Positions 3,599 to 63,998 of a stretch of 64,000 nucleotides of DNA are shown piece after piece. The translations under genes were made by a program, and so were the position numbers. Position 1 is the stretch's first letter. Each line of letters begins with the position of its first letter. This DNA is from an uncultured virus (IMG/VR IMGVR_UViG_3300032167_000103) (lineage: Duplodnaviria > Heunggongvirae > Uroviricota > Caudoviricetes), in the IMG/VR virus record IMGVR_UViG_3300032167_000103, positions 1-64,000 of that record; one strand, 5' to 3'. The notes under the pieces are model-generated. The model was given only the letters and a program-made list of their open reading frames with translations, made no database searches and had not been told where the DNA came from.

Positions 3599-6412
3599 AT
3601 GAGATTAGAAATTCTGGATATTGACAGATTAATTGCTGTCAATAAACTCCAAGAGGTAACATCTCCTCGTTTATTTTCAAATAAGATGATGTTTGATCCT
3701 CAAGGTATTTTATCAAATGAGATTTTTGGTATTTCTAAGAGTGATCGTAGATCTACTTTCGCTTATATCAATTTAAGACGACATTTCATTCATCCTCATA
3801 TCTATAATAAAGTTCTTAAAGGAATTTTTAGAGGTATAATCTACATTGTATCAGGACAAAAATATTATTCTGTAAAGAACGGATTGTTAGTCGAGGATCC
3901 TGATAATGGATGGACAGGACTGGAAAATCTTTATAATCATTGGAATGAAATTGATTGGAGTAAATCTCAATCAGCAAATAAGACGAATAAAAAGGTTTTG
4001 ATGAATATTACTCGTGATCAGGTATTCATTGATAAAATGCTGGTTTGTCCTCCAGCATATCGTGATGTAATGATTGCTGGCACAGTTGACTCATCTGACC
4101 ACGTAAATGAATTAAATGATCTTTATGTAAGATTAATTCGTTCAGTAGCTCTATTAAGCGAGGGTGGACTATTTGCTCGTACTCAATATGCTACACAGAC
4201 TAAGATTCAAGATACTCTTGTAGAAATTATGGAATATTTTAAGAAACAGATTTCTCGTAAACAAGGTCTTATCAGAAAGAATCTTATTGGTAAATCTGTA
4301 GACTATGGTGTACGTGCAGTTATTTCTGCTCCTTCGTATAATAATGAACGAATTGAAGACAATATCATTGATATTGAACATACTGCAGTACCAATTTCAA
4401 TGTGTTGTTCGATGTTTTATCCTTTTATCGAATCATATTTACGTAATTTCTTTACACGAGAAATTATTAATGATCCGAACTTGATCACATTCTATGATAT
4501 TGAAAATAAAAGAAGTTTTACTGCTCAAATTAAAGATCCTGATATTCAATTTTCTGAAAAGAATATAAGAAAGATGATAAACGATTATTGTTTAAATCCG
4601 GATAATAGATTCAGGGTTCTTTCAGTAGATGTTATTATTCCACAAGCTAGTGGAAATAAAACTGTAAAAGCTTCTCTTGTAATGAAGGGTAAACAAATTC
4701 TTCCTAATGATAGTACAACAATGTTGAATAGAGCTATGACTATTACAGATGTTTTATATTTAGCATGTGTTGATGCTTGTGAAAAACGTCATGTAATGGT
4801 GTCTCGATATCCAGTAGGTACTGACAAAGGTATTTACTTTAATAAGATTAGAGTTCAATCAACAATCAATCATATTAAATTAGTATTCAATGGAAAAGAA
4901 TATCCATATTACCCAGATATTGATTTCAAGATCGATCAGAATAAAGTTGGAGTTCAATTTATCGATACCCTTGTACTGTCAAATTCACATTGTGATGGTA
5001 TGGGTGCAGATTATGATGGTGACGTGTTATCAGCAAGAGGTATTTGGTCTGATGAAGCAAATATGGAAGCTGAAGAAATCATGAATCGTAAAATGTCTGC
5101 ATTAAACATTACTGGTGCGAATAGTAAAGTAGTAGCTAAAGAAGTATTTAACTCATTATATGAGTTAACAAAGATTGGTGAAAAACCTGTAGCAAAAGTT
5201 GTTAGACCTTTAGATGCTGAAATGTATCTAAAAATGAGTCCTTCTGATATTACACGTACTTTCTTAGCAGATACATTTGCAGATATGGTAGATTGCACAG
5301 TTAAAAATGTAGCTGGTAAAAATGCACCAAGATATAGAACTTGGGATAAAATTACAATTCCTGCTAAACATTTTTATGAAGGACAAAAAGAAATTGAAAC
5401 TACTATAGGTAGATACATTGCTAACAAATTTATGTTTGAAGGATCAAATATTATTGAACAAATTGGTTTCGTTAATGAAACTATGAATAAAAAAGTTGTT
5501 GGTAATATTGATACTAAAGTAGGTCAATTATATTTGGAAGATAATATTAATAGAACGCAATTCAATATGTATCTTGACAGAAGAGATACTCTCGGTTATT
5601 GGTTGAATGGTATGCTTGCACATACTATTTCTGAAAAGATGACTAAACCATTACCAGAAATTGAGAAAAAGAAAGCTGAACTTTGTAAGAAATATGAGAA
5701 AGAATTAGCTGAAGGTAATATCGATGTAATGACTCAGATTAGTGATGAATTAGTTGCTTATGCTAAAGAATTACTTAAAGGAGATCCCGGCATGGATCTA
5801 TATGATTCTGGTGACCTTGATTTTGGTAATAACTATAAAAACAATTCTATTATCAAGGGTGCAGTAATGAATAAAATCACTGGTGAGTTTGACTTTATTG
5901 ATACATCATTTATGGATGGTATTAATGTTAAAGATATTCCTGCTCATGCTAATTCAATTCTTGCTTCTCAGTATCCTGCATCTATTGCTACAGCTGATGC
6001 TGGTTATATGGGTAAAAAGTTATTAGCATTACTTCAGATGATGGAAGTTGATGAACCTGGAACTGATTGTGGCACAAAGAATCTCATTCCTGTAAATATT
6101 ACTAAACATAATATGAATGACATGCTTTATACTTATATCGAAGAAGGATCTCAACTGAAGATGTTAACACGTGAAAACATTGGATCCTATGTTGGTAAGA
6201 GTGTAATGATGAGATCTCCAATGTCTTGTAAGAATGAAAAGATTTGTTCAAAGTGTGCTGGACAATTATTCTATTTACTTGATGCTAAACATGCAGGATT
6301 GTTTGCAACTCAGATTTCACATGCTGCTCTTAACCTTGGATTGAAAGCTAAACACAATAGCTTAGTAGAACTATTTACTTTAAACCCAGATGTGCTTATT
6401 GAAGATCTATAA
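3599..6412 (+). CDS. rpoC: phage multisubunit RNA polymerase beta-prime subunit (N-terminus to trigger loop)
   Basis: GKSVDYGVRAVIS, SRYP, catalytic GADYDGD, bridge helix TADAGYMGKKL, DCGT...RSPMSC...CSKC Zn site, trigger loop ATQISHAALNLGLKAKH. Confidence 0.93.
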   Translation: MRLEILDIDRLIAVNKLQEVTSPRLFSNKMMFDPQGILSNEIFGISKSDRRSTFAYINLRRHFIHPHIYNKVLKGIFRGIIYIVSGQKYYSVKNGLLVEDPDNGWTGLENLYNHWNEIDWSKSQSANKTNKKVLMNITRDQVFIDKMLVCPPAYRDVMIAGTVDSSDHVNELNDLYVRLIRSVALLSEGGLFARTQYATQTKIQDTLVEIMEYFKKQISRKQGLIRKNLIGKSVDYGVRAVISAPSYNNERIEDNIIDIEHTAVPISMCCSMFYPFIESYLRNFFTREIINDPNLITFYDIENKRSFTAQIKDPDIQFSEKNIRKMINDYCLNPDNRFRVLSVDVIIPQASGNKTVKASLVMKGKQILPNDSTTMLNRAMTITDVLYLACVDACEKRHVMVSRYPVGTDKGIYFNKIRVQSTINHIKLVFNGKEYPYYPDIDFKIDQNKVGVQFIDTLVLSNSHCDGMGADYDGDVLSARGIWSDEANMEAEEIMNRKMSALNITGANSKVVAKEVFNSLYELTKIGEKPVAKVVRPLDAEMYLKMSPSDITRTFLADTFADMVDCTVKNVAGKNAPRYRTWDKITIPAKHFYEGQKEIETTIGRYIANKFMFEGSNIIEQIGFVNETMNKKVVGNIDTKVGQLYLEDNINRTQFNMYLDRRDTLGYWLNGMLAHTISEKMTKPLPEIEKKKAELCKKYEKELAEGNIDVMTQISDELVAYAKELLKGDPGMDLYDSGDLDFGNNYKNNSIIKGAVMNKITGEFDFIDTSFMDGINVKDIPAHANSILASQYPASIATADAGYMGKKLLALLQMMEVDEPGTDCGTKNLIPVNITKHNMNDMLYTYIEEGSQLKMLTRENIGSYVGKSVMMRSPMSCKNEKICSKCAGQLFYLLDAKHAGLFATQISHAALNLGLKAKHNSLVELFTLNPDVLIEDL

Positions 6413-30670: not shown

Positions 30671-30712
30671 TTTACTATTTTATTAATTATTCTCATTTTG
30701 GAGGGATTAAAT

Positions 30713-33019
30713 ATGCAACATTTTAAGTTAGAAAAAGATTGTGTATTGTACAAAACACAATTTGAAAAGTATATGCTTGATATATTTGGAGACCACCGTC
30801 TGGATAGATATTCTTTAGATTTAGATGGAATTTTATTTAGAATTAAATATATGACTAAGCATAAAAGAGATCTTGATAAGATTCCAGAATTACAAGAGAA
30901 ATTTACTAATATTGCAATCCAGTTAAGAAAATGCTTTGGTGAATTTCTCTTTAACTTCTTAGCTCAGATTATAACAATTCCTGAACCATTTAAACTTGAC
31001 AATATTGTTGATATTCTTGCTCATGATGTGAAGATGGATCCGAATTATGTAAAGTTTAAAATGATATTAATTTCAGATAGTAAAGAATATATTGAATATG
31101 TAGATTCAGCTTTTCCAGATAATGAAGTATTTAATATGTTTCCAAACGAATACTTTAGATTTTATACTGATTCATACAATGATGGAATTGCTAAAGCATA
31201 TCCAGAACTATTTGAAAATAAACATCAGGACAAGATTGGTGTTGGAGCTGATGGAGATGTATTCTGCCACAACTTTACTTTTCAGACAGGAGAACGTTGT
31301 TCACTGAACTGTACGTATTGTGTTCCAGATGGTACCAAAGTTACATTACCAGATTATTCAATGAAAAATATTGAAGATATCCAAGTAGGTGATAAAGTAT
31401 TGGCAGTAGATGAACATCATCCTGTTGGTAAAGAACATACATTACGAGAATCTGAAGTTACACATGTTTTCAAAAGGGAAACAAATGGTTATTTTAAGAT
31501 ATCTCATAGAGCTTTAAAAGAACCTATTTGTATTACTGGTGAGCATCCTGTAAAAACAGAGAGACGTGGATGGATACCTGTAAATATGTTAAGATCAACG
31601 GATAAAATTTTGATATCTTCAATAGATCCATATGATTTTTATTCTACGAATTTTAAAAATCCATCATTTATAATGAATAAAATCTCAAATTCATATCATT
31701 ACTATAAAACGCAATACATTGGTGGATTTAAACTTGAAAATATTAAAGAAAAATGTACAGTGTATAATTTGGAAACAACTGAACATACTTACGCTATTGG
31801 AAGATTATTAGTTCATAATTGTTATCAGTTTAATAAATCAGAAATGAGAATGAGTTTTGAAACTGCAAAGAAGTTTATTGATAATTTATTGACTGATCAA
31901 TATGGATATATTAATCAATATAATTCTCCTGCCATCATTATGGAGTTTATTGGTGGCGAACCTTTGCTTGAAATTAATCTTACAAGAAAGATTTATGAAT
32001 ATTTTCTTGATAGATGTTACGAATTAAATCATCCTTGGTTTACTCTTCATAGACTTTCAATATGTTCTAATGGTATGCAATATTTCGATAAAGAAGTTCA
32101 AGATTTTTTTAAAGAATATTCTTCACAAATTTCATTCAATATTTCCATTGATGGAAATAAAGAATTACATGATGCTTGTAGAGTTCAACCAAATGGAGAA
32201 GGAAGTTATGATATTGATATATGTGCACTGAATCATTATAATAAACATTTTACACCAGAGAGAAATTCTAAGATGACTTTGGCTCCATCTAATATTTCAT
32301 ATCTATTTGATTCAGTCGTAAACTTTATTAACAACGGAATGACAGTTATTAATATTAACTGCATTTTCGAAGAGGGTTGGAACCAAGAGACTGCACGAAT
32401 TGAATATTATCAGTTAAAGAAATTAGCTGAGTATATATTAGAGAATGATTTAGATCATCTTTATATAGCCATATTTAATGAACGTCAAGAAGACGTGATG
32501 CCTAAAGAACAGGATGGATCATTTTGTGGAGGTGCCGGTTCCATGCTTGCTATGAGACCTAATGGACAGTTTTATCCATGTATTCGTTACATGCCATCTT
32601 CTGTTGGTAATAATGTAAAAGATCTTTGTATTGGAACTGTCGATACAGGTATTCATGGACGAGAAGAAGGATCTGATATCATTAGAATGTTAGATAGAAT
32701 TACACGACGTGCACAAAACAATGACATCTGTTATGAATGTCCAATTTCAAATGATTGTGCTTCTTGTTTAGCATTAGGACATACAGTATTTGGTACTCCT
32801 AATAAGAGAACAAACTTCATCTGTATCCAAATGATTGCTGAGGCGTTAGCTAATGTATTTTACTGGAATGCATTATTAATCAAACATCCAGAATATAATC
32901 TCGATGTAAGAAAAAATAATGTTCCAGATAAATGGGCTCTCTTAGTAATAGATGAAGAAGAACTTGATTATTTGAAAAAACTTGAAGCATATGCAATGAT
33001 CATAAAGATGGAAAGATAA
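30713..33019 (+). CDS. radical SAM/SPASM peptide maturase (CXXX-repeat target type), intein-containing
   Basis: After intein removal reads CSLNCTYCYQ; EFIGGEPLL, SNG, ISIDG; SPASM region CGGAG...YPCIRY...CYECPISNDCASC...C; about 190-aa N-terminal extension. Confidence 0.88.
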   Translation: MQHFKLEKDCVLYKTQFEKYMLDIFGDHRLDRYSLDLDGILFRIKYMTKHKRDLDKIPELQEKFTNIAIQLRKCFGEFLFNFLAQIITIPEPFKLDNIVDILAHDVKMDPNYVKFKMILISDSKEYIEYVDSAFPDNEVFNMFPNEYFRFYTDSYNDGIAKAYPELFENKHQDKIGVGADGDVFCHNFTFQTGERCSLNCTYCVPDGTKVTLPDYSMKNIEDIQVGDKVLAVDEHHPVGKEHTLRESEVTHVFKRETNGYFKISHRALKEPICITGEHPVKTERRGWIPVNMLRSTDKILISSIDPYDFYSTNFKNPSFIMNKISNSYHYYKTQYIGGFKLENIKEKCTVYNLETTEHTYAIGRLLVHNCYQFNKSEMRMSFETAKKFIDNLLTDQYGYINQYNSPAIIMEFIGGEPLLEINLTRKIYEYFLDRCYELNHPWFTLHRLSICSNGMQYFDKEVQDFFKEYSSQISFNISIDGNKELHDACRVQPNGEGSYDIDICALNHYNKHFTPERNSKMTLAPSNISYLFDSVVNFINNGMTVININCIFEEGWNQETARIEYYQLKKLAEYILENDLDHLYIAIFNERQEDVMPKEQDGSFCGGAGSMLAMRPNGQFYPCIRYMPSSVGNNVKDLCIGTVDTGIHGREEGSDIIRMLDRITRRAQNNDICYECPISNDCASCLALGHTVFGTPNKRTNFICIQMIAEALANVFYWNALLIKHPEYNLDVRKNNVPDKWALLVIDEEELDYLKKLEAYAMIIKMER
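31319..31819 (+). mobile_element. 167-aa mini-intein inside the CxxxCxxC motif
   Basis: Starts CVPDGTKV...IEDIQVGDKV; block B ITGEHP; ends VYNLET...LLVHN followed by Cys+1; no endonuclease domain. Confidence 0.92.
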
Positions 33020-33604: not shown

Positions 33605-33733
33605 ATTAAAGACTCCTTTCATGATTTACTTTTGTTTTATCCAGTTTATTTCCCAGGATTAATTATCTGTAATTAGAAAATTATGAATGAAAACGACTAT
33701 TTAATTATTGATTTCTATCGTGGAGGTGTTAAT

Positions 33734-35983
33734 ATGAATAAAGATCTTTATTCAAATCAAGAATTCACTGAATTAAAACACCGATTAAATCAGGAAATAC
33801 AGAGAAGAAGTACATTTTCTTGGTGGGATCCGCTAACAACACCATCTGTTGGAGAAGATAAATCATCTCCAATGTCATTACCTGATATCGGTCAACGAGT
33901 TTCAGTTGATGATAAAACATATACAATCAATAATCCTTCTGAGGGATCTATTGAAAGGACTAAAAATATTCATTATCAAAATCATGGAGATAGTCCATCA
34001 GGTGATGATAGTGAATTTATTTCAACAGTTCCAAATACATCTGCAGCTAAAATGGATGCAGATGAAATGAGAAACTTTTTGGTTGGTTTATCTAAAATAA
34101 AAGATATCAATCTTTTTTATGGTAGAGATGAAATCCCAGGTCTTGCTTATAGAGATCCATCTGGAATAGAAGAAGTACTAACAAGTGCTGAAAAAGATAA
34201 ATTACATGAATATATTGTAGGTGAATATTCAAAGAATGATCCTAATAATGGAGCTAACGATCATTTAGACGGAAATTATCCTAGTAATATTCACGAAGTT
34301 CATTACGATATTGAAAATGGAATTGCTGTAATGAAATCCGGAGAATATGATGGAGAAGAATTAAACACCCATGATGGTTTAGGTCCTAATAATTTCTTTG
34401 ATGATTATGGGGCAGAACCAGGAGATGGTGATTTTCATCCTTATAACAGAGGATATACTCCACAAAGTAGACGAGATTGGAAAATACATAATAATCAACG
34501 TAAAACAGAAAAGGTTTATGTTACTGAAGGAGGAATACCAACTTCTTCTTTTGGACCAAATCCTAGAAATCCAGTCCAAGGTAAAGAATATAAATCTCGT
34601 CCAGTATTTAAAGGATCTCCAAGTACTTGTCAGGTTGCTTGTACTGGTCTATGTAGCGTTACTTGTGATGATCAATGTTCAGAATCTTGTTCTTCAACAT
34701 GTTGGAGTCGATGTGGTAATGCTTGTACTTCTTCATGTGGTAATGCTTGCACAGGTTGTAGTACTTTATGTTATACATCTTGCAAAACTAAATGTGAAAA
34801 CATTTCTGGATATGCTTGTGTAACTGCTGGAGCAAAAGCTATTAAAATAACAACATCTGGTGGCACTAATGGTGTACCTGCAAAAAATGAAATCCAAGCA
34901 GAAACATATTCATGTCAAGGATGTTCATATAGTTGTCAATTTTATCCTAATAAAAAGACAACTTGTTGGGATGCTGGATGTATGGGTAATTGTTTTATCT
35001 CTTGTAACACAGCATGTTCAACTGCCTGTACTGGTGGTTGTATTAATAATACAGCTGAAGAAGGTACTTCATATAAAACTGGTAAAGGCAGAGGATGTTC
35101 TTCTGGATGTACATTAAACTGTATTGGAAATTGTTCTGGGACATGTGAAGGACAATGTGTGACAACTTGTTGGCATGCATGTAAAGAAACATGTACTGAC
35201 AATTGTACATTCGAATGTTCTACAAATTGTGGAAGTGGTTGTGCTAGTGGATGTAAAGATGGTTGTACAGGATGTACAGGAACTTGTGAATCTTATTGTG
35301 AAGGACAAACCGATTCAATAGGATGTACAGGTTGTAGCACAAAAGGCGGTTGTACATCTACTTGTCAGCATGGCTGTAATAAAAATTGTGTTGGTATAGG
35401 ATGTAGATCAATTTGTGGTATTGAAGCTGCTGGAGCTTGTGAAGCTAATTGTAGAATCAATTGTATGAGTTCTAGTTGTTCAGCTATGTGTTCTAATCAA
35501 TGTTCAGATCAATGTACAACATGTGTCAATACCTGTGGATTTGGATGTGGGTATTGTTCTTCCGTATGTTCTTCTGGTTGTGATGCTGCTTGTGAAATCA
35601 CGTGTAGTGAGAAGTGTGAACATTCTTGTGAAAATAATTGTGTTCAGTCTTGTAGTGAAGAATGTGGCGGATGTTCTTCATTATGCTTCTCATGTGTTGG
35701 AATGTGTATTGGAGTTTGTAGTGTACATTGTGAAAATGGATGTACCAGTTGTTCAGTAATGTGCGGATGGTGGTGTGATTCTTCATGTAATCAACAATGC
35801 TTTGCAAATTGTGACACTTTCTGTATATCTGATTGCTCTGGTTCTTGTATAACATTCTTAATGAGTAAAGCTAATACTACCATTGGACCTGAAAATAACC
35901 CTACAGCTGAAGGATATAAGTGTCCTCATCCTTCTAATAGAGAAGAGGAACGTGAATCATTTATTATTAGGAAGGATGAATAA
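33734..35983 (+). CDS. giant Cys-rich CxxxC-repeat protein, putative radical SAM substrate
   Basis: About 750 aa: ~300-aa Cys-free N-terminal region, then about 89 Cys (manual count) mostly every fourth residue; ATG at 33734 after GGAGGTG. Confidence 0.85.
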   Translation: MNKDLYSNQEFTELKHRLNQEIQRRSTFSWWDPLTTPSVGEDKSSPMSLPDIGQRVSVDDKTYTINNPSEGSIERTKNIHYQNHGDSPSGDDSEFISTVPNTSAAKMDADEMRNFLVGLSKIKDINLFYGRDEIPGLAYRDPSGIEEVLTSAEKDKLHEYIVGEYSKNDPNNGANDHLDGNYPSNIHEVHYDIENGIAVMKSGEYDGEELNTHDGLGPNNFFDDYGAEPGDGDFHPYNRGYTPQSRRDWKIHNNQRKTEKVYVTEGGIPTSSFGPNPRNPVQGKEYKSRPVFKGSPSTCQVACTGLCSVTCDDQCSESCSSTCWSRCGNACTSSCGNACTGCSTLCYTSCKTKCENISGYACVTAGAKAIKITTSGGTNGVPAKNEIQAETYSCQGCSYSCQFYPNKKTTCWDAGCMGNCFISCNTACSTACTGGCINNTAEEGTSYKTGKGRGCSSGCTLNCIGNCSGTCEGQCVTTCWHACKETCTDNCTFECSTNCGSGCASGCKDGCTGCTGTCESYCEGQTDSIGCTGCSTKGGCTSTCQHGCNKNCVGIGCRSICGIEAAGACEANCRINCMSSSCSAMCSNQCSDQCTTCVNTCGFGCGYCSSVCSSGCDAACEITCSEKCEHSCENNCVQSCSEECGGCSSLCFSCVGMCIGVCSVHCENGCTSCSVMCGWWCDSSCNQQCFANCDTFCISDCSGSCITFLMSKANTTIGPENNPTAEGYKCPHPSNREEERESFIIRKDE
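34628..35848 (+). repeat. Cys-Xaa3 periodic coding repeat
   Basis: TGT/TGC recurring with a 12-nt (sometimes 9-nt) period, in blocks separated by short linkers. Confidence 0.9.
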
Positions 35984-50825: not shown

Positions 50826-52499
50826 TTATTTTAGCATGTTATAATATACTCCATGCTTTTCTACTAGTTCTTGATGACTTCCTGATTCTACCACTGTACC
50901 GTTTTGGATCACATAAATTATATCACAATTTTGTATAGTTGATAATCTATGAGCGATTGTTATTATAGTCTTTCCTTCCAAGGCATCTACTGCATCTTGA
51001 ATGATAGTTTCAGATTCATTATCGAGAGCACTTGTGGCTTCGTCTAGTAGTATAATTTCCGGGTTCTTAAGAAATAATCTTGCTAAAGATATTCTCTGTT
51101 TCTGTCCACCTGATAGTTTTAAACCTCTTGGCCCAACTTCTGTGTCAAACTTCTTGTCCAATGACAATATGAATTCTAGAATATGAGCTTTGTTGCAGGC
51201 ATCTAATAATTCATTTTCAGTAGCATGAGATGAACCATACATGATATTTTCTTTAATAGTTCCAGGAAAGATTATGTTTTCCTGATGTACAGATCCAACG
51301 TGTTTTCTATAACTATCAAGTGTTATCTCGTTTAACGGAACTCCATCAATTGTTATTTCTCCACCCTTATGATCATAGAAACGATTCAGAAGTTTAAATA
51401 AAGTTGATTTTCCACCACCACTAGTTCCACAAATTCCTATTTTCTGCCCTTTCTTAATTTTCATATTAACGCCAGCTAATGTATTGTTAGAATTATCATA
51501 TGAAAATGTTACATTTTTGAGATTAATTTCATCCTTAAATTCTAACAACTCTACAGACCCATCTCTCATCAAACCAGGATATTCAATAATATTTTTATAT
51601 TCATCTTTCAATGACATGTTATCAGAAATATCAGATATAAAATCAAGTATTGCTAACATTGGATCCATGAGTTTAAATACTAGCATTATTAAACTCATTG
51701 CTTGAGCTTGATTAAGAGCTTCAAGAGAAAGCTGATAAATTGTATATCCAATTACAATAATTAATCCAACTGCTTCAACACCATCTATTGATCCATATAA
51801 TATTGAATTAATTTTTGCTTTCTTTATTTGGTTTCCGCATATTTCTTGATTTTTATTTCTTATAGAAATTCGATGTTCTTCAACTGTATTAAATGATCTA
51901 ACCTCGGCAAATCCATTAATGATGTTTTCTACTTCCTGATTCCTTTTTCTTTTGACAACTGTAAACGCTTCATCAATTTTCATATACTCTTTATAAACTT
52001 TACTGAAAATTATCATTCCTATGAAATAAATGATGATTATTGGAATTATCATATCTCCACCAATTTGATACATTGTAAACAATGTTATGATTATCGCACA
52101 GCAACGAATGATGAAAGCTCCGGTATTCATACCGATACTAGAAATCTTACTGAGAAATTCTTGAGCAGTATTAATTCGAGCAACCGAATATTTAGTAAAC
52201 ATTTTGTATTCAGCACCTAGAATTTTATCTACATATCTATTGATCAATGTAGTATACACTTGTTTGATACTAGCTGTTCGTAAATAACCAACAAGAGAAC
52301 TTGCAATTATATTCGTGATTAGTACGAATACGAGTGTGATCAAATGATTAATCCAATTTTCAATATCACCGAAAATATTGGATATCATTATCACTAAATA
52401 GTTACTGATTACCACTGTTACAAGATTACAGATAAACCAACATAACAACATCATGCAAGCTTTCTTATCTTGTAACCATTCTTTGAAAATAAATTTCAT
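50826..52499 (-). CDS. ABC exporter, fused TMD-NBD (MsbA/ABCB-like)
   Basis: About six TM helices; Walker A GTSGGGKST, LSGGQKQR signature, ILLDEATSALD, IAHRLST; no N-terminal C39 peptidase. Confidence 0.95.
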   Translation of the reverse strand: MKFIFKEWLQDKKACMMLLCWFICNLVTVVISNYLVIMISNIFGDIENWINHLITLVFVLITNIIASSLVGYLRTASIKQVYTTLINRYVDKILGAEYKMFTKYSVARINTAQEFLSKISSIGMNTGAFIIRCCAIIITLFTMYQIGGDMIIPIIIIYFIGMIIFSKVYKEYMKIDEAFTVVKRKRNQEVENIINGFAEVRSFNTVEEHRISIRNKNQEICGNQIKKAKINSILYGSIDGVEAVGLIIVIGYTIYQLSLEALNQAQAMSLIMLVFKLMDPMLAILDFISDISDNMSLKDEYKNIIEYPGLMRDGSVELLEFKDEINLKNVTFSYDNSNNTLAGVNMKIKKGQKIGICGTSGGGKSTLFKLLNRFYDHKGGEITIDGVPLNEITLDSYRKHVGSVHQENIIFPGTIKENIMYGSSHATENELLDACNKAHILEFILSLDKKFDTEVGPRGLKLSGGQKQRISLARLFLKNPEIILLDEATSALDNESETIIQDAVDALEGKTIITIAHRLSTIQNCDIIYVIQNGTVVESGSHQELVEKHGVYYNMLK

Positions 52500-52532
52500 T
52501 TTAAGCACCTTCCTTTTCTTTATTATACATTA

Positions 52533-54216: not shown

Positions 54217-54727
54217 TTATTTGCTGATAGCGAAATCTTCCAAATGAGTCTTAAACAAGTTGATTATATTATCAGTGAGATATTTCTTCTTGAATGGAAG
54301 ATTTTCTACTACATAGTCCCAAACTTCGTCAACATCATCAATATCTCCAGGATTCTCTTTAAGATATCTTCTGTATATTTTACCAAGTTTCTTGAGATGA
54401 TACATTTCATTAGATGTGCAGAAGATTGTACTATTACCTACTACAAATCCTACACTATCTTCATCGTGTTCTGCCTCACCGATATATTCATCTTCATCGA
54501 TGATTGTTTCCATACGTACTCCTAATGATTTCAGATATACCTGAAGAACTTCTACAGATCGTTGAGTAAAATTATCCGGAATATTATAATGACCATCTTC
54601 TGATAATATAGCTTCATACATATAACGTCTTCCATCAATTGAAGATCTGTATAGTGCACTAACTAATGCGAAGTCTTGAGGATCTGTAATTACAAGGAAA
54701 TTAGGCGTTTCGTACTCCCCAAATCTA
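54217..54727 (-). CDS. rpoB: RNAP beta (C-terminal subunit), exon 3
   Basis: RFGEYE corresponds to bacterial RFGEME; SVEVLQVYLKSLG; frame restored by splicing. Confidence 0.88.
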
Positions 54728-54947
54728 CAAGGGATTTTCTTAACTTTCAATTTCGTGAATAGATTAGACTATATCTTCAAATAATATCTATTACCAATAT
54801 TATTTGCCCTCCATTTCCATATTGCACTATTTATCATTCCACTATAAATAGACTAATGAATTCATTAGCTGTACTCTACTGACTGTATTAGTATCGTATT
54901 TCTCGAATACTACAGTTGGTCGATAGTCGTTGAACTTTATACTGTGT

Positions 54948-55796
54948 TTATTGACGTTTAACTGGTATACTATATAAACAACTAATATGTTTCCATGATC
55001 TTTTAGTATTAATATCATAAATTAACGTTTTAGGAACATTCATAATCTCAGATATTTCCATTATTTTCACATTTGGATTTTCTAACATTTTACAAATATT
55101 ATGAATTTTATCTTCTGAATATTCATTTCTAAAATTTATCGAAGGAATATTATATTCAGAAGAAATATGTGTCCATGTTTCACCTTTTCTAATATGATAA
55201 ATAATTATAGATGAAACACCTGTTAATTCTGATATTAAAGCTGGATTACTATTAGTATTTTCTAACATTTCACATACTAATCTAATTTGTTCTTCAGTAT
55301 ACACATTTTCTGGATGTTTAATACCTTTAATGTCTAAAAGACCAGTATCTACTGCATGTTGCATATTTTCTTGAATTGTGACCCATTCTAAGTTCCCAAC
55401 CCAATTACATGTTTTAATACCATTCTTGTGATTTACAAATGGTTTATTCTCTGGATTTGGAATAAATGCTTCAGCTACTAACCTATGTATGGAACGTTTA
55501 TATGGTTTTTCTTTTAGACCATAAATATTTATCATCAGATATCCAGCATTTGTAACAGCACCTTGAATAGTTTGATTTTTAACATTTATCACAACGCCTG
55601 TATTACTAATCTTATATCCTGAATCTTTACCATCAATAATCACTGGTTTCCATACAGGATTATTCAGATCATGAATGTATTGATTTAACAATTGTATTTC
55701 TGCAATTTGTAATTCATAATCATTCTTGTTAAATAGATATTGAGAATGTTTATTTCTTTCTTCTTGTAATAATTTATCTAATTTAGATAGTTTCAT
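54948..55796 (-). CDS. intron-encoded NUMOD4/HNH homing endonuclease
   Basis: WKPV...YKISNTG; IHRLVAEAFIPNPENKPFVNHKNGIKTCNWVGNLEWVTIQENMQHA; two C-terminal helical repeats; ATG after AAGGAGGT. Confidence 0.92.
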   Translation of the reverse strand: MKLSKLDKLLQEERNKHSQYLFNKNDYELQIAEIQLLNQYIHDLNNPVWKPVIIDGKDSGYKISNTGVVINVKNQTIQGAVTNAGYLMINIYGLKEKPYKRSIHRLVAEAFIPNPENKPFVNHKNGIKTCNWVGNLEWVTIQENMQHAVDTGLLDIKGIKHPENVYTEEQIRLVCEMLENTNSNPALISELTGVSSIIIYHIRKGETWTHISSEYNIPSINFRNEYSEDKIHNICKMLENPNVKIMEISEIMNVPKTLIYDINTKRSWKHISCLYSIPVKRQ

Positions 55797-55818
55797 ATTG
55801 ATTACCTCCTTTCTATAT

Positions 55819-55828
55819 AGAATATATG
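55819..55828 (-). promoter_or_regulatory. intron-internal putative promoter CATATATTCT
   Basis: Recurrent motif just upstream of the HNH RBS. Confidence 0.5.
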
Positions 55829-56015
55829 ATTTGATTTTAGTCAATAATATACACAGTATTTTAGCTGCGGATTATCCAATCTTATAACGTTTTTACCATC
55901 CCTAACCCATTACAGTTAGTACTAACACTGTCCATTACTGGCAGCTGTGGTAGTTATAAGCTCTAAGGAACTTCCCGCAATTAAAAGGGTTTAAAGCCAA
56001 CTAGATTTGTAGTTA

Positions 56016-56722
56016 ATCGGCTTTGTTGATTTCCAATCTCTACCAGTTTTATTCGAGTTACTCTTCTCAGGTAGAGATTCATCACCAATGGCTCCAGAAG
56101 ATCTAACAGAGAAACCTTTCTCACCGGACTGTTTAAGCATCATGATATATTGATATCCAACATAATCGTCACCAATCCAAATATCCCTTCCCCACTTTGG
56201 TTTAGGAGCAAAGATATGATAAGGTTTAATAATATCACCATACTTTTCATATATCTCTAAGATAGAATCTCGTAATGACCATTCTTCATTGAAAGGTTCC
56301 CATCTTGAATATAATCCATTATTGGTGATAAGTAATCCATTTCTATCTACAGAGATACAGTCTTGAATGAAATGTTTCTTTTGATAATCTGATAAACCAT
56401 CATAAATATCTTCTAAATCTTTAGTCTGTTTAGGATTTAAGATTCGTAATATATCGAACATAAATTCTTTTTGTTCTTCTATAGTATCTAAAGTTGCTGC
56501 ATGTTTTCTAGCACGATCTAGAATAAATGTAACTGATCCTTCATACATAACCATTGGAATAGTACGATTGATAATAGCCAATGGATTAGTTATTAAATCT
56601 ACTCGTTCTCGTACTCCTTTAGCATGTTTTACACCATATTGATCAGTTGTCATTTCTGTAGTTAAATATGGCATTTCTTCATCTGGCCATATACTACATG
56701 TCACAGTCTTGTTTCCATGCCT
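56016..56722 (-). CDS. rpoB: RNAP beta (C-terminal subunit), exon 2
   Basis: RHGNKTV...EEMPY, DLITNPLAIINR, VGYQYIMMLKQ...SVRSSG. Confidence 0.9.
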
Positions 56723-57150
56723 CGGTTTCTTACACATTGATTCGCAACATCAATGCAGCAACTTAATGCTTCTTATGCTTTCACATAACGACAGTAGAAT
56801 TTCACTACTGAAGGATCTTTCGATCGTCGAGATCATATCTTTCATAGTAATTATACTATGACCGGCATTTCGATTTAAGGGATTCTCACCCACCTCTTAG
56901 ACCTTATTCAGTCCTGCTTAGGCCCTACTCCTATTGATAATATTAATTTATTAATATTATCCAAGGGATGATCGTTGAACTCATATCCTGTTTAGGATAC
57001 TTCGCTGCGTCGGTTGTCCCTATTTCTAACATTTTTACTATACCTTTGGAATTACCCATTGCCCCATAGTATATCACTATCTATGGTTAGTAGTTAGAAC
57101 TTAACAGGAGTTTCCCGCAATTAGCACGATTTTACGTCGGCATGCATTTT
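56723..57150 (-). mobile_element. group I intron 1 (428 nt, no ORF)
   Basis: P1 GUCGGU/GCCGAC with U.G at the 5' splice site; P AAUUGCGGGAAA; R GUUCAACGAUCA and S AAGAUAUGAUC; terminal G; splicing gives KIVG-RHGNK. Confidence 0.92.
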
Positions 57151-58293
57151 ACCGACTATTTTGCGGCCGACTTTGACGGTTTCTTTACTTCTAATCAGAA
57201 TCTCTACCATAATATTTGAAAATACAGAATCATTGAAAGCCCATTGAGCATCTGTATCCAAATAGTTCATAGCTTTACGTTTCCATCTATTGATTTCCTT
57301 GTCGATATTTTTGGAACCGCTTTTCAGAATTTTCTTACATACTTTATACACATCAGTGTAGAACCATCTTGCATCATTGTAATACTGAATAAGTTGTTTT
57401 GTAACCTTATTGGTTTTGATATTAGGATTATTGCAGTATACATTGATATCGATAATTTCAGAATCTTTAGGACAGTAATATTTAGCATCTGATTGATTGA
57501 TATGATGTAAAGAAATATCTCTCATGTCAGAAAACATTCTACTTTCTTTAATCTGACGAGTAGCTGCTAAAATACCATCACTGATAATATCACCTATATT
57601 CGGAAGACCTTGATATTCTCCTTCTTTACCATAGAGATTCAGAAGAATAGTATTTTCACTAATAGGTATGGTCTTTGATGTTACATTATTTGCTACCATT
57701 CTTTTTGCAAAAGATTCTGATAGAATAATGGCATCATCCTGTACAGCTGGATGTGCACCATATAGAATTCGACCATTTACACCAATTGAAGTATTTCCGT
57801 ATTCATCATAAGATGTAGTTGAATATAACATTGTACCTTCAGGAATAATTTCACCAACTTCTGCAGCATCAAGAAAATCATTCTTGTAATCGAAACCAAA
57901 ATTCTCAGTAAGATTTTCTACTTGATTTCTCTCTACTACTGTATACGAGTCATCCTGCCTGCAATATAAGAAGTATAAAGCAACGTTACATTTACCTTTT
58001 AGAAGGTTTTCATATTTCTTACAGATTGCATATACTTCATATTCCTTATCTGCTCTTTTATAGAATGAAGAATGTTCACCGGTAATATTTTCTTTACCAT
58101 CATACAGGAATGGAAACTCTGGATTATCTAATGTAAGATGTTGCGTATGATGTTTAATGTTCATCGTACTACGCATTACATTGTTACCTCCATAGAAATC
58201 ACCTTGACCTGTTAATGCTAATTTCTTTTTCCCTTTGAGCTCTTCATTTTTTCGTTGCAGTTCTTGGATGAGGTTATACTTTTCTCTAACCAT
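57151..58293 (-). CDS. rpoB: RNAP beta (C-terminal subunit), exon 1; spliced product 786 aa
   Basis: NVMRSTMN..HHTQ, GVN...QDDAIILSESFA, GLPNIGD, KVGRKIVG. Confidence 0.9.
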
Positions 58294-58408: not shown

Positions 58409-58444
58409 GATACAATCCAGAGGGAATTCCCTCTGGATTGTATC
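58409..58444. terminator. perfect palindrome after the tail tube gene
   Basis: GATACAATCCAGAGGGAATTCCCTCTGGATTGTATC. Confidence 0.75.
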
Positions 58445-58488: not shown

Positions 58489-59565
58489 TTATTCCTGTGC
58501 AAAACCATCCCAAGAAGTTCCAGCAGATCTTCCTGGCTGACCAGCAAGTTTGCCATCAACCATACTCTTGAGACCAATGTTCTTAGTAACAGGTGCAGTA
58601 GTGGTAGTAAATACAGGAACGTTACCGATATTAGTACCAGTTGCACTATCAACCGGAACAGCACCAAGAGACCTATTAAACAAGTTAGCATTACCGTTTG
58701 CATATACAGCATCACCAAGTTCAGGGTTGAAGTTCAGTGAGTTAGATACAATACGATACTGTTTTAACAAGTCATTTGCAATTGCTGTGATGATAGGAGA
58801 TCTGTACACAACGCAGTTGAAAGTAACGTCATAAGTTACGTTATCATGAGTTCCGCCCTGAGCCATATCAAGGATTGCTCCCTGATTAATTCCCTTAGGA
58901 TAACAGTCTGCAAGTAATACAGCACGTTCAACTTGAGCACCGGAACGATCATGCATGATATAGATGAATTCTGCAGTATGATTTGCTTCATTGAATGCAA
59001 TACCATCTGTACTTTCACCATTACGTGCATACAAACGTTTCTCTTTACCATCTGCGTCAGTACCACCTGAAATCCAGCCACCATAAGTAGCAAGACCACT
59101 GTTCTCATCACCGATGGCGTTCATCCAACCATCAATAACAGTGAATACAGGTGCACCCACCATTTCATACAAACCAATAGTAATTTCATTGGTTGTTTCT
59201 TTAGTTACTGTAGGAGTAAAGAACTGGCGACCTGCAAAACCACCCTGAATAGGTGTAGATGCATTTTCAATTGTTTTCTCCTGGAAACCAGTAACAGATC
59301 TATTCATATATTCAAGCATGTGCTTAAATTGAATGAACAAAGAGTTTGTGTTATACAAGTCATCTCCACCAGCAAACATTTTAGCGATTGCTAAAGGAGG
59401 ACGTACCATAAATAATCGACCGAAACCATTGAGCATTGGAGAATAGTTACGTAATGCATGATGAGTTGCATTAGTACCACCAACGAACATAGAGTATTTG
59501 GTGAAGTCAGGAGCATCAAACTGACGACCTCCGGTCTGACTGGTGATTACATTTTTAAGAGCCAT
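58489..59565 (-). CDS. putative tail tube protein
   Basis: Coupled to the sheath gene (TAATG overlap); ITIGLYE...GWMNAIGD...LADCYP...YDVTF tube-like pattern. Confidence 0.65.
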   Translation of the reverse strand: MALKNVITSQTGGRQFDAPDFTKYSMFVGGTNATHHALRNYSPMLNGFGRLFMVRPPLAIAKMFAGGDDLYNTNSLFIQFKHMLEYMNRSVTGFQEKTIENASTPIQGGFAGRQFFTPTVTKETTNEITIGLYEMVGAPVFTVIDGWMNAIGDENSGLATYGGWISGGTDADGKEKRLYARNGESTDGIAFNEANHTAEFIYIMHDRSGAQVERAVLLADCYPKGINQGAILDMAQGGTHDNVTYDVTFNCVVYRSPIITAIANDLLKQYRIVSNSLNFNPELGDAVYANGNANLFNRSLGAVPVDSATGTNIGNVPVFTTTTAPVTKNIGLKSMVDGKLAGQPGRSAGTSWDGFAQE

Positions 59566-62024
59566 TAACTTTCACCTCCATCAGAATAATCAGGTCTCTG
59601 GATATTAATTTCAAGAATGATTCTCTTAATAATATCACGGAATTTAACTACACAGTAGCAGTGCATAATCATGCGTTCCTGCTCCCACTCATTAGCTTTG
59701 AACTCAATGTTGATATCCTGAACCATTGTACCAATCCAAGGACGATAAATCGCCATCTGAGCATCAGTATAACCCTTACGAGCTTCAGGTTCATTCCAGT
59801 TGTACAGATAATTGCGGTTAGCCTGTTCAAGACCTTTCTTAAGTCTGTTAAGAACACGAACGTTATTCTCTTCAAGCAATGCAGAAGCATCAAGCTGACG
59901 AGTATTCTGAACAGCACGCTGAACAATTCTACCCTCTTCACGAGTTAAGTAGTAATTGAAACGATTTGTGAACAGAAGTTCCTTAACATCCCAGTCGATA
60001 AGATCAATATCAGGTTGGAAGGTATCACGAATCATAGAGTTAGCTGCAGTAAGTGCATTATTCTTCTGAACGCAAGTTAACTGAGCAAGACCATATACGA
60101 AAGGTTTGTTCAAACCTTCATGGATGATATGATTGATCAATTCTTTAGCAATGAAGTAAGAAGTTGTAACTTTAACTCGTCTGCCAGTATAAGGATCAAA
60201 AATATCATAACAACCCAAGTCGATAGAAGTTGCACGTCCAGTGAACTCACTAAACATTTCAATGATATCCATCAACTCAGTAGAAGCATTAACATTCTTA
60301 ATACCTACATTACCACAGTCAAGATATAAAGAACAACCAGCACCCATGTCTTCTGCAATAGTCATACCATTGCGGTTTCTGAATTCGTTAAGATCGTACA
60401 TAGCACGTTTAACGTTAATATCAGTAACATCAATGGCACCAGAACTTGCAGTAATTGCTAACTGCTGATAATCTGCATCTGTCAGGACAGTACTATTACT
60501 ATATAGATTCTGGATAGAATCATCAAGTGTCAAGTCACCTTCAGAAGTCATATTATAGTTAGCATCGAACATGAAATCAAGGTTTACTCTTGCAGGACTT
60601 AAGATCTTACGATCCTTATATCCACGGAATGCAGAAACATATTCACGAGAGAGTAATAGTTTCATTTCTGCAGCAGTAGGAGCACGAGTTACTCCATCAA
60701 CAGTAATCTCTTCGAAATCACCATCATGACCGCCAGTAAACATGATACCTCTAGAATTAGTGATATCAATACCATCGTACTGATCGTCATCAGCAGCAGC
60801 TTCTACACCTTCATCGTATGTAATGTTTCCTGCATCAGTATCAATATGAGATACAGTATAACGCCAACGATATCCACCATTGTTTTCATCTGCAAGTACA
60901 AGTACAGAAGCACCTACAGTTGCAGTAGCCCAATCGGATAGATTCTGAGGCATCATAGATGCATTTGCAACTTCCATATCAGGAGCAACATAAGGACCAG
61001 TGCTCTTCATTGTGTAGTTTCTGTAGTAAGGAATAATCTCGTTAGAACGAGTATTCAATACAGTACCAAACATAGGATCGAAAGTTTCTTCACTAATTGC
61101 CATAGCAATTTCAAGATCAGCTAACTGATCATCAGTAGAAGCATTCTGAGCCAAGTAAGTCTGGTTAGATTCTACAATCTTCTTATAGAAGTCATAAAGT
61201 TTCAGATAATTATCTTCGAAAGGATAAATATATACAGGACAGCTACCAGTAGCAAACTGATCTAATACGTCACTAATTAAAGTAGACATATTGAAACGAG
61301 TTGTCTGATATAAAGAACCAGAGAAGATATTGGATACACGAGATACACCAGCTGTATTAGTAATCAAAGACCACTTATACATCTTCATCTCATATTCTTT
61401 TTCTGCATCAGTGTCTCTACGGAAACACATAGCATATTTATTACCATATTTACCACGACCGACAGAACGAACGTAAGCAAGAGGTAATGTCATATAACCA
61501 GTCTGAGCATCAGGTACTTCACTTGCAAGAGAATTAGCAACTTCAAGAATTGCCATATCATCAGTGCTACCTTCAGTCAAACGAGGTTTGCCAGCATACG
61601 CAACATCGAATTTGATTTCGAAACGTTTTAGACCAGTTTCCTGACCTAAATCATCTAATTCATTACCTTCACGATATTTCGCAAGAAGAATCATGTTTGC
61701 ATAAGTAGCATTATCAGGAAGAACGCGGCAGAACCAAACGTTCGTACTTCCGTTGAATAAAAGATCAGCCTGTAGAGAAGCCTGACCATATTTCTGGAAG
61801 TTACCCTGACCGAATAAAGCTTTCTTTGTTGGTAGATCACTTATACGAACGAAAGTATTGTCAATACCCTGATCAGCACCAGTAACTACGACTGTCGCAT
61901 AAGGGAGTTCGCTAGTATCACTAGGCTGAGCAGTAGTTTCATCGTAAAAAGTGTCATCAAGAATTACCGTATGCACATGAGGATGTGCATAGTACGGAAT
62001 AATTTGGACGCTAGATTCACCCAT
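59565..62024 (-). CDS. contractile tail sheath protein
   Basis: 819 aa; C-terminal LLEENNVRVL...IEF...VKFRDIIKRIILEINI; lies between terminase and tube genes. Confidence 0.78.
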   Translation of the reverse strand: MGESSVQIIPYYAHPHVHTVILDDTFYDETTAQPSDTSELPYATVVVTGADQGIDNTFVRISDLPTKKALFGQGNFQKYGQASLQADLLFNGSTNVWFCRVLPDNATYANMILLAKYREGNELDDLGQETGLKRFEIKFDVAYAGKPRLTEGSTDDMAILEVANSLASEVPDAQTGYMTLPLAYVRSVGRGKYGNKYAMCFRRDTDAEKEYEMKMYKWSLITNTAGVSRVSNIFSGSLYQTTRFNMSTLISDVLDQFATGSCPVYIYPFEDNYLKLYDFYKKIVESNQTYLAQNASTDDQLADLEIAMAISEETFDPMFGTVLNTRSNEIIPYYRNYTMKSTGPYVAPDMEVANASMMPQNLSDWATATVGASVLVLADENNGGYRWRYTVSHIDTDAGNITYDEGVEAAADDDQYDGIDITNSRGIMFTGGHDGDFEEITVDGVTRAPTAAEMKLLLSREYVSAFRGYKDRKILSPARVNLDFMFDANYNMTSEGDLTLDDSIQNLYSNSTVLTDADYQQLAITASSGAIDVTDINVKRAMYDLNEFRNRNGMTIAEDMGAGCSLYLDCGNVGIKNVNASTELMDIIEMFSEFTGRATSIDLGCYDIFDPYTGRRVKVTTSYFIAKELINHIIHEGLNKPFVYGLAQLTCVQKNNALTAANSMIRDTFQPDIDLIDWDVKELLFTNRFNYYLTREEGRIVQRAVQNTRQLDASALLEENNVRVLNRLKKGLEQANRNYLYNWNEPEARKGYTDAQMAIYRPWIGTMVQDINIEFKANEWEQERMIMHCYCVVKFRDIIKRIILEINIQRPDYSDGGES

Positions 62025-62105: not shown

Positions 62106-62819
62106 TCAATAGTGAATGATTTTCTCTAATGGTGATACAGGTTCTTCAATATTTTCGGCAGAATTGTTAATACCATTTGATATCATAGTACCGATATCTT
62201 CAAAGACCATACCACTAAATGTTGATAGATCTTTAACTACAGATCTTACATTTCCTGTTTGATAATCATAACCATTAGGTTTTGATTGTCGAGCATAATA
62301 TTGCCCATAACGTTCTTTCATATTGTTTGGATTACGATAAATGCTTGCAATGATCATTTCATATATTTTTGATGGAACTTTATAACTTACACCAGAAATT
62401 TCCAAGTTTCTCCACCAAATGTCAATCACCTTTGTATAGTTTAAAGTACGAGGAAGTTTACCAGATAACATACTATCTAGGAATGCACCTGCTACTTCTC
62501 TTCCTTTAGGTAATGTTTGGTGGATAATATAAGAATCTTTCATGTACTGTAAAGTCATTACAGAAATAATCTTTCCGTGTACTTTAATATTTTCTACTTT
62601 AGATTCATATACTATGAAATTTGTAATAACTGGAACATTGAAGAGTTTTAACTCTCCTTCTTGTCCATTAGGAAACGCTCGTGTATAAACAATACCGAGT
62701 GCTTCAATAGATGCACCTCTGTTTACAGCAATTCCTGAGTTGAAATATTCCATTGGGATATATATTTCCATATAATCGTTGCAATAAATTTTTCCTGATT
62801 TTGCGTATAAAATACCCAT
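62106..62819 (-). CDS. putative RNAP beta-prime C-terminal fragment
   Basis: ISGVSYKVPSKIYEMIIASI and NVRSVVKDLSTFSGMVFEDIGTMISNG...SPLEKII resemble beta-prime QGVKINDKHIEVIVRQM and [25 protein letters not shown]...LKENVI. Confidence 0.6.
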   Translation of the reverse strand: MGILYAKSGKIYCNDYMEIYIPMEYFNSGIAVNRGASIEALGIVYTRAFPNGQEGELKLFNVPVITNFIVYESKVENIKVHGKIISVMTLQYMKDSYIIHQTLPKGREVAGAFLDSMLSGKLPRTLNYTKVIDIWWRNLEISGVSYKVPSKIYEMIIASIYRNPNNMKERYGQYYARQSKPNGYDYQTGNVRSVVKDLSTFSGMVFEDIGTMISNGINNSAENIEEPVSPLEKIIHY

Positions 62820-62837
62820 GTTTATTGTTACACCTCC

Positions 62838-63032
62838 TTACTCGATTTGTAGATATCTTATTACCTTTGGATTATTTTTCATATCATCCAACGCTTCTTC
62901 TATTGTATTAAACTTACAAGGACAAATATGACCTTTCGTAGTATTTATATAACTATATCCGGATCCATCTTTGTGAGGAAGAAGTAATACTTCAATATTA
63001 TCATCTTCTCGTTCTACTAAAAATTTTAACAT
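62838..63032 (-). CDS. small hypothetical protein
   Basis: 64-aa ORF, AGGAGG RBS. Confidence 0.6.
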   Translation of the reverse strand: MLKFLVEREDDNIEVLLLPHKDGSGYSYINTTKGHICPCKFNTIEEALDDMKNNPKVIRYLQIE

Positions 63033-63998
63033 TTAATATCTTCCTCCTGTTCCATTAATATCATCAAAGAACCATGAGCCTAGATCCACAGTATCAGAAG
63101 GATTAAAATCTCTATCTTCTCTAGAGTAAATTGGATCATTCATAAAAGATAAAGTATCACATAAAGTTCTAATTTGAGATTCCATTCTTGCAGAAGCATC
63201 CATAACTTCAGCGTCATATGAAACTACTTCTTTGCCTCCTGAATTAACTAATGCAGTTTCTTGAGAAGTGATTCCTCCAGCAGGAGGTTCTTCAGGTAAC
63301 TGAATTGGTCCATATAATGGATTATCACCTTTAATGATACCAAATGTTTCAAGATTATCTCCAGTATAATAAATATAGATGGCATGTAGATATGCCATTA
63401 CACAGTCATCATGTTCACCCTTATCGGCTTCAATACGTCCAGTAGATGTTTTAATCAATTTACACAAATCATCTACTAAGTATTCAGTAGTAAGAATATC
63501 TTTACATACATCGACATGTTGGAATAACAATTCAAACATTGCATCACGGACTTTCTTGCTTAAGAATGTACCGTATTTTCTATACTGTTCTGACAATGAT
63601 TTCAATTCTTGTGTTCCGTCTTCTGATGTTAATTCCTCTAATTCTTGAGCTTTTCTAGACCAATACAAGTTATCTCTAATATCAGTCTCTAATAGCATCT
63701 GAATTAAATAAATACCCATTGAGTTCTTTTCTGGAATTAATACTGCCTTAGGAATATATTCATGAACTAATTCAATCAACATTCGAACTGCATTAGGTCC
63801 AGAAATATATGGAGATTTAAATTCAGCAGCAATCTTCAAGTTAAATGGGTTAATAATATACACTGAGAAGTTATCTCCTCCGCCACCGCCAGCAGGGTCA
63901 ATACCAACAAGATACGGGATATTTTCATCAAGATCTTTAGGACGACCGAATTGGTATCCTGCTCCATGTTCGTAAAGTTTATATAACCATTTTCCACA
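63033..63998 (-). CDS. terL: large terminase subunit, C-terminal nuclease domain (5' end beyond window)
   Basis: Frame open to the window end; YLVGIDPAGGGGGDNFS, IPEKNSMG and GEHDDCVMA RNase-H-like motifs. Confidence 0.85.
   Translation of the reverse strand, partial: CGKWLYKLYEHGAGYQFGRPKDLDENIPYLVGIDPAGGGGGDNFSVYIINPFNLKIAAEFKSPYISGPNAVRMLIELVHEYIPKAVLIPEKNSMGIYLIQMLLETDIRDNLYWSRKAQELEELTSEDGTQELKSLSEQYRKYGTFLSKKVRDAMFELLFQHVDVCKDILTTEYLVDDLCKLIKTSTGRIEADKGEHDDCVMAYLHAIYIYYTGDNLETFGIIKGDNPLYGPIQLPEEPPAGGITSQETALVNSGGKEVVSYDAEVMDASARMESQIRTLCDTLSFMNDPIYSREDRDFNPSDTVDLGSWFFDDINGTGGRY

Follow-up and report, generated by a model that had tools for sequence, protein, structure and literature searches.

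Described virion RNA polymerases

The core of the phage virion RNA polymerase (RNAP) is described as 'at least five polypeptides' (PMC7598289; PMC13282480). A split between the N-terminal (N) and middle (M) parts of beta-prime is treated as common to the two phage enzymes and cyanobacteria, and no virion RNAP had been purified according to the same 2020 review (PMC7598289). The phage enzymes have also been argued not to derive from the splitting of cellular subunits (PMC7824862). In Bacillus phage AR9, gp125 is counted among five virion RNAP subunits, as a beta-prime piece, and all five are encoded by late genes (PMC5312081). In phage SPN3US, gp244 was named the fifth virion RNAP subunit, i.e. 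the 'missing' C-terminal piece of beta-prime, on the basis of its presence in heads, its loss on knockout of the beta subunit gp241 and a match at E 0.05 to region a20, to which a clamp-hinge role is ascribed (PMC5105663). phiKZ gp176 is given as the equivalent of gp244 (PMC5105663); it is elsewhere called a virion RNAP subunit, and its knockdown leads to lower ChmA (PMC12571901).

Here we analysed a 64,000-nucleotide stretch of DNA from an uncultured virus of the Caudoviricetes, a giant phage (hereafter the window; positions 1 to 64,000 of IMG/VR record IMGVR_UViG_3300032167_000103) and, in particular, an ORF of 237 aa near its end (Table 1). We conclude, with a probability of roughly 93%, that this ORF encodes the C-terminal piece of beta-prime of the phage's virion RNAP. 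The initial annotation had read it as the missing beta-prime C-terminus, and this is supported by (i) orthology with gp125, (ii) natural single chains that include the piece and (iii) a predicted interface that passes its controls.

Table 1. Features of the window discussed in the text, with strand and basis of assignment
Feature	Position	Strand	Basis and remarks
237-aa ORF, very probably the virion RNAP beta-prime C-terminal subunit (gp244/gp125 family)	62106..62819	-	homology, fusions, fold, complex
Residues 1-103 of the 237-aa ORF, beta-strand domain, probably jaw-like	62511..62819	-	model; weak fold matches to SI3-type beta-prime inserts
Residues 145-162, helix in register with E. coli RpoC 1245-1262; core of predicted interface with 937-aa chain	62334..62387	-	profile ranking, complex
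Residues 199-221, in register with E. coli RpoC 1318-1340	62157..62225	-	profile ranking; putative a20/H clamp-hinge mapping
Ribosome-binding site AGGAGG	62833..62838	-	read from sequence; abuts stop codon of upstream 64-aa ORF
64-aa ORF	62838..63032	-	ORF list; homologue in 4/19 related loci, 3 of these identical to window
Terminase large subunit, C-terminal part	63033..63998	-	phrog_2, E 3.4e-7; frame runs on to 64388 in G000
Tail sheath	59565..62024	-	phrog_19666, E 2e-26
Tail tube	58489..59565	-	PF23806, E 2.7e-10
Non-virion RNAP beta C gene, three pieces	57121-58293, 55991-56737, 54217-54750	-	profile matches
HNH/NUMOD4 ORF within the non-virion beta C gene region	54948-55844		
Virion RNAP beta-prime N + middle parts, one 937-aa chain	3599..6412	+	phrog_2986 at 2-522, phrog_2962 at 516-932

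Gene neighbourhood

The 237-aa ORF is a stand-alone gene with its own ribosome-binding site, the AGGAGG lying 13 nt upstream of the ATG, and purine-rich sites likewise precede the gene in related loci. As the initial annotation had stated, it lies between terminase and sheath, with the 64-aa ORF intervening on the terminase side. The same arrangement, with terminase upstream and sheath downstream of the homologue, recurs in 19/19 viral loci, three of which are identical to the window and several others of which look like near-duplicates of one another; in two of the 19 the sheath match begins about 2 kb further on. In AR9, the gene for gp125 (248 aa) likewise follows terminase, with sheath and tube coming immediately after it. 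By contrast, the gene for SPN3US gp244 (240 aa), the C-terminal part of a three-piece beta-prime, lies near the beta gene gp241. Gene position is thus weak evidence for an RNAP role, since gp244 is encoded beside neither terminase nor sheath. From AR9 and SPN3US we infer, by analogy, that the 237-aa protein would be expressed late and packaged in the virion; a promoter scan found 26 sites against 30.3 expected and is therefore uninformative on late expression.

Two irregularities were seen in this region. In record G000 (26% complete), which runs beyond the window, the terminase at 63033-66748 is interrupted: a 189-aa ORF separates its two ORFs. Terminase is contiguous in L091-L094 and others, which makes an intron or a comparable insert likely. 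The copy of the 237-aa ORF at L094 6033-6743 contains two in-frame stops, probably a sequence error; the similar copy in L106 is intact.

Homologues and orthology

The ORF had been called an orphan, which proved incorrect: 266 of the 447 scored candidates match it, as do PHROG 2926 (E 1.4e-20, ORF residues 8-236) and 20 phage records, and a wider search gave 407 representatives at E up to 0.001. The 120 close homologues listed have 237-246 aa. The best cultured match is AR9 gp125 (AMS01209.1; 31.6% identity over 96% of the ORF, E 2e-24). SPN3US gp244 is matched over most of its length by our family profile A2 (HHalign 86%, E 5e-6 with a single target; about 12% identity in the alignment) and is found by hmmsearch at E 6e-8 (among 5 targets). 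Homology to both gp244 and gp125 is thus full-length, and the 237-aa ORF is their orthologue, a member of an already known gene family described in 2016.

Three of the 20 phage records are labelled 'viral RNA polymerase beta-prime subunit', and the note of the Madawaska record adds 'C-terminal'. PHROG 2926 and the AR9 record, on the other hand, bear the labels 'virion structural protein' or 'virion protein'. Together with the invariant terminase and sheath neighbours, these labels would fit an ordinary structural protein encoded in the head-tail operon, one with no relation to RNAP and resembling RpoC motifs by chance. This is contradicted in SPN3US, where gp244 disappears from heads along with gp241 (PMC5105663) and its gene stands in a block after the beta gene gp241, away from sheath. 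With the fusions and structure predictions described below, we consider a mere structural role exceedingly improbable.

The beta-prime chain probably completed by the ORF

Virion-type N and M parts of beta-prime are present in the genome and end short of the C region. They form one 937-aa chain, encoded 55.7 kb from the 237-aa ORF, with the catalytic DxDGD at residues 471-475. This chain corresponds to two AR9 proteins annotated as virion subunits, gp145 over the first half and gp264 over the second, and its end coincides with that of gp264. In AR9 the partner is thus divided between two genes, which lie about 100 kb from each other. N and M form one ORF in the window and in 119/119 other homologues among 120 of the 602 matches listed, and none of these 119 homologues (922-962 aa) contains the C domain. 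Compared with the five-polypeptide virion RNAP, there is no N/M split here, and the enzyme would work like that one with one split fewer.

Among cultured phages, the fused N+M form was found in Fusobacterium phages only: of 313 records, theirs are the four that cover 80% or more of the 937-aa query. Phages JD-Fnp1, 4, 6 and 7 have N and M likewise fused in a gene of about 930 aa, whose product shares 28% identity with the 937-aa protein and is annotated as 'subunit alpha' or left unannotated; their C piece matches the 237-aa ORF weakly (E 0.03-0.4). The label 'RNA polymerase subunit alpha' on JDFnp4_84 (ON464764.1), a homologue of the 937-aa chain, is a mislabel.

The window also encodes part of the non-virion RNAP: its beta C pieces (54217-58293) lie on the same strand, 4 kb from the 237-aa ORF and just downstream of the tube gene. 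The ORF might accordingly be read as completing the non-virion enzyme instead. However, in relatives a separate gene of 708-736 aa encodes the non-virion beta-prime C part, matches AR9 gp154 up to residue 617-630 and has its own copy of the tail (4/5 records, 3/3 complete). Moreover, a perfect 16-pair hairpin, terminator-like on both strands, occupies the gap between tube and non-virion beta gene at 58409-58444. Since fused forms (below) also attach the domain to virion-type N and M parts, completion of the non-virion enzyme has almost no chance of being correct. The virion enzyme is thus without the segment, and the non-virion enzyme has it. Orthology, chain order and complementarity follow from computation. 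The non-virion beta C gene itself likely contains two introns, because its pieces are contiguous in L093 and L104.

Natural fusions

Among the 150 homologues listed, five (P0146, P0149, P0151, P0172 and P0233) carry the domain at the end of a virion-type beta-prime chain. In P0146 (1167 aa), residues 1-919 match the 937-aa protein (35%) and residues 930-1162 match the 237-aa ORF (31%), so that the junction sets the end of the one against the start of the other; the other four are partial chains with the same order of parts. The fusion in P0146 is unlikely to be an assembly error, because the 1167-aa form is found in 11 of the 15 members listed of its cluster, on contigs of up to 234,790 bases. 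Some relatives therefore carry beta-prime whole, and in these the 237-aa piece corresponds to what comes after the 937-aa chain. In all three complete relatives, one N+M locus and one separate C gene together tile P0146, and matches to gp241 (the virion beta N gene) and gp154 are present. The initial annotation had proposed that the ORF complements the 937-aa beta-prime about 56 kb away; the fusions, the complementarity of the two proteins, the weak fold matches to phage non-virion beta-prime C chains and the predicted interface support this, and the fusions largely refute a structural protein unrelated to RNAP.

A model of P0146 (pLDDT 77.5, under 50 in the last 73 residues, 1095-1167) follows cellular beta-prime chains over residues 4 to about 1120 (750-790 residues aligned at a Z of about 20 and an rmsd of about 16); for Thermus thermophilus beta-prime, residues 4-1120 lie on 11-1469 (Z 20.4, rmsd 15.8, 754 aligned). 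Through the fusions and this model the piece holds the same place in the chain as the cellular RpoC C-terminal region, and the fold of the piece alone is weakly matched.

The same three complete relatives show an interruption of the N+M gene (G002:103319-106488, G003:70153-74263 and G004:182159-186296) at about P0146 residue 465-476. The break adjoins the catalytic motif, measures about 370-1320 bases and looks like an intron.

Homologues of 330 aa or longer number eight among the 150 matches listed. A separate search for longer homologues returned none among 6763 candidates despite these eight carriers from the other search, which is taken as a sensitivity limit, so that the five fusions give no frequency. 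The three carriers other than the fusions, i.e. P0127 (991 aa), P0128/P0428 (633/1968 aa) and P0129 (1558 aa), are long multi-domain proteins in which the domain comes last, behind GNAT, DUF362 and unassigned regions. They form one branch in a quick tree (support 100). An E-A step stands just ahead of the domain, as in a possible prohead-protease site; ES dipeptides were observed/expected at 9/5.2, 13/7.9 and 14/10.4, which lends weak support to protease cleavage of these carriers.

Since these 3 of 150 matches listed end proteins unrelated to RNAP, it might be argued that the 237-aa protein descends from the beta-prime C-terminus and now only assembles or packages the polymerase, outside the transcribing enzyme. 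Its strong divergence from RpoC agrees with such a role, and the published genetic evidence is of co-packaging, not of catalysis (PMC5105663). Against this, five relatives have the domain joined covalently to the rest of beta-prime, and the segment is absent from the 937-aa chain and its 119 other homologues listed; the predicted interface also wraps the zinc-site/trigger-helix region and reaches the clamp. A role confined to assembly or packaging is thus very unlikely.

The quick tree comprised 138 C domains, with fragments and rows outside 225-262 aa excluded and long carriers trimmed to the domain. It places the five fused forms in two positions among short forms; four of them group together (support 97) inside a branch of support 99 that also holds the clade of the window ORF. 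The root of this tree depends on one very long branch, and its short rows are presumed to stand alone. The two positions hint at repeated re-fusion. We put at about even odds a history in which virion beta-prime is found as three chains, two or one, the single chain having been restored by secondary fusion on at least two occasions, each at the same junction. If so, a virion enzyme of some three chains would be expected in phages with the 1167-aa form; this would offer the easiest way to purify and solve a virion RNAP for the first time, and beta-prime splits would be reversible, not fixed relics.

Likeness to cellular RpoC

The initial annotation had noted RpoC-like motifs in two segments. 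With ungapped profiles from 139 homologues, residues 145-162 placed E. coli RpoC window 1245 first of 2715 RpoC and RpoB windows (z 4.6) and residues 199-221 placed window 1318 first of 2705 (z 4.3), the two windows being in the same order as the motifs of the ORF; the query ranges were picked to fit the earlier claim, so that only the target side of this ranking is blind. By contrast, the 'LKENVI-like' end (residues 229-236) ranked 136 of 2735 and did not hold up. The two motifs occur in register and in order in cellular RpoC a17-a20, the AR9 gp154 tail and the phiKZ non-virion tail, with which the ORF also shares, by weak structural matches, the same helical fold. It differs from RpoC a17-a20 in being a separate polypeptide (12% identity), in lacking the stretch that E. 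coli RpoC has between the two motifs, and in having no recognisable final motif.

Likeness at the level of whole profiles was not significant: HHalign against an 81-row alignment of proteobacterial RpoC C-termini gave 0.3% and E 0.2, a result that also fits an unrelated structural protein. This direct match is about as weak as that published for gp244 (E 0.05). E. coli RpoC was missing from the hmmsearch results with the family profile, at a cutoff of E 10. No Pfam family matches the ORF, and over 139 family members no RNAP family was among the best 25 of 30 weak Pfam families. Sequence searches of the PDB (E up to 10) gave 0, 1 and 1 matches, both unrelated to RNAP.

Predicted fold and complex

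The 237-aa ORF is modelled (pLDDT 87) as a beta-strand domain, residues 1-103, followed by a helical half. The N domain superposes weakly on 8h02_A (Z 3.7, rmsd 3.2, 71 aligned) and 2auk_A (Z 3.0, rmsd 3.7, 72 aligned). For the whole model, Foldseek ranks D chains of the AR9 and phiKZ non-virion RNAPs in the first three places (E 8.6e-4, 5.6e-3 and 1.8e-2) and E. coli beta-prime fourth; the superpositions are loose (TM 0.38-0.43, rmsd 10-14), and only the first row has an E under 0.001. VIA-align over 48,161 chains stayed below Z 5 throughout. Ranked first is phiKZ non-virion chain D, with residues 104-237 on 552-673 (Z 4.6, rmsd 3.4, 120 aligned), tied in Z with an unrelated retrotransposon capsid. 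The top fold matches are thus non-virion beta-prime C chains of phages, weak in degree (best Z 4.6, Foldseek rmsd 10-14). That RNAP chains top both searches argues against an unrelated structural protein. That the best matches are non-virion chains could favour completion of the non-virion enzyme; however, these are the nearest folds on offer, because the PDB sequence searches gave no phage virion beta-prime chain.

A complex of the 237-aa protein with the 937-aa chain was predicted with a score of 0.82, against 0.00 for the best of three controls; the mark used was reached by 116 of 157 solved pairs and 2 of 215 mismatched pairs. The input consisted of our own alignments and partner residues 175-937 (residues 1-174 left out); contacts agreed by at least 94% between runs, and partner pLDDT was at least 82. 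In the model, residues 127-161 of the 237-aa protein pack on partner residues 804-914, residues 194-237 lie in the interface, as do 211-232 and 503-507, and the end of the partner (923-937) contacts the start of the 237-aa protein (2-6). We take jaw, bridge helix, zinc site, trigger helices and clamp to be suitable names for the residue ranges concerned, from knowledge of RNAP structure. The complex passing its controls speaks, as a prediction, against an unrelated structural protein; the pass may be owed to likeness with solved RNAPs, as the halves of a split gene can pass in this way.

Proposed role and implications

For the beta-prime C-terminal piece we propose the following mechanism: (i) the 237-aa protein would be made late, with terminase, sheath and tube; (ii) it would bind the 937-aa chain non-covalently, its helices 127-162 packing behind the bridge helix, zinc site and trigger helices and its tail 194-237 completing the clamp hinge; (iii) with two beta pieces this would give a four-chain core, packed in the head; and (iv) the core would be injected with the DNA and transcribe early genes without the host polymerase.

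The published assignment of the C-terminal piece rested on co-packaging and a profile match at E 0.05 (PMC5105663). The natural fusions now identify the 237-aa piece as the end of virion beta-prime by sequence alone. With beta-prime in two chains or one, these virion enzymes differ from the 'at least five polypeptides' given in the reviews of 2020 and 2026. They are simpler targets for expression, and they are relevant to the question of whether the splits in phage enzymes are old or recurrently gained and lost. Neither fused nor four-subunit virion RNAPs were found in the openly available main texts searched; the supplement of PMC7824862, which covers RNAP subunits of 224 jumbo phages, may record fused forms.

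Other features of the window

Three further ORFs or genes were observed: a radical SAM-like protein with a Hint/intein-like segment (30698-33019, + strand), near it a very cysteine-rich ORF of 766 aa (33683-35983, + strand), and a phage-borne ABC transporter with membrane and ATPase domains (50826-52508, - strand).
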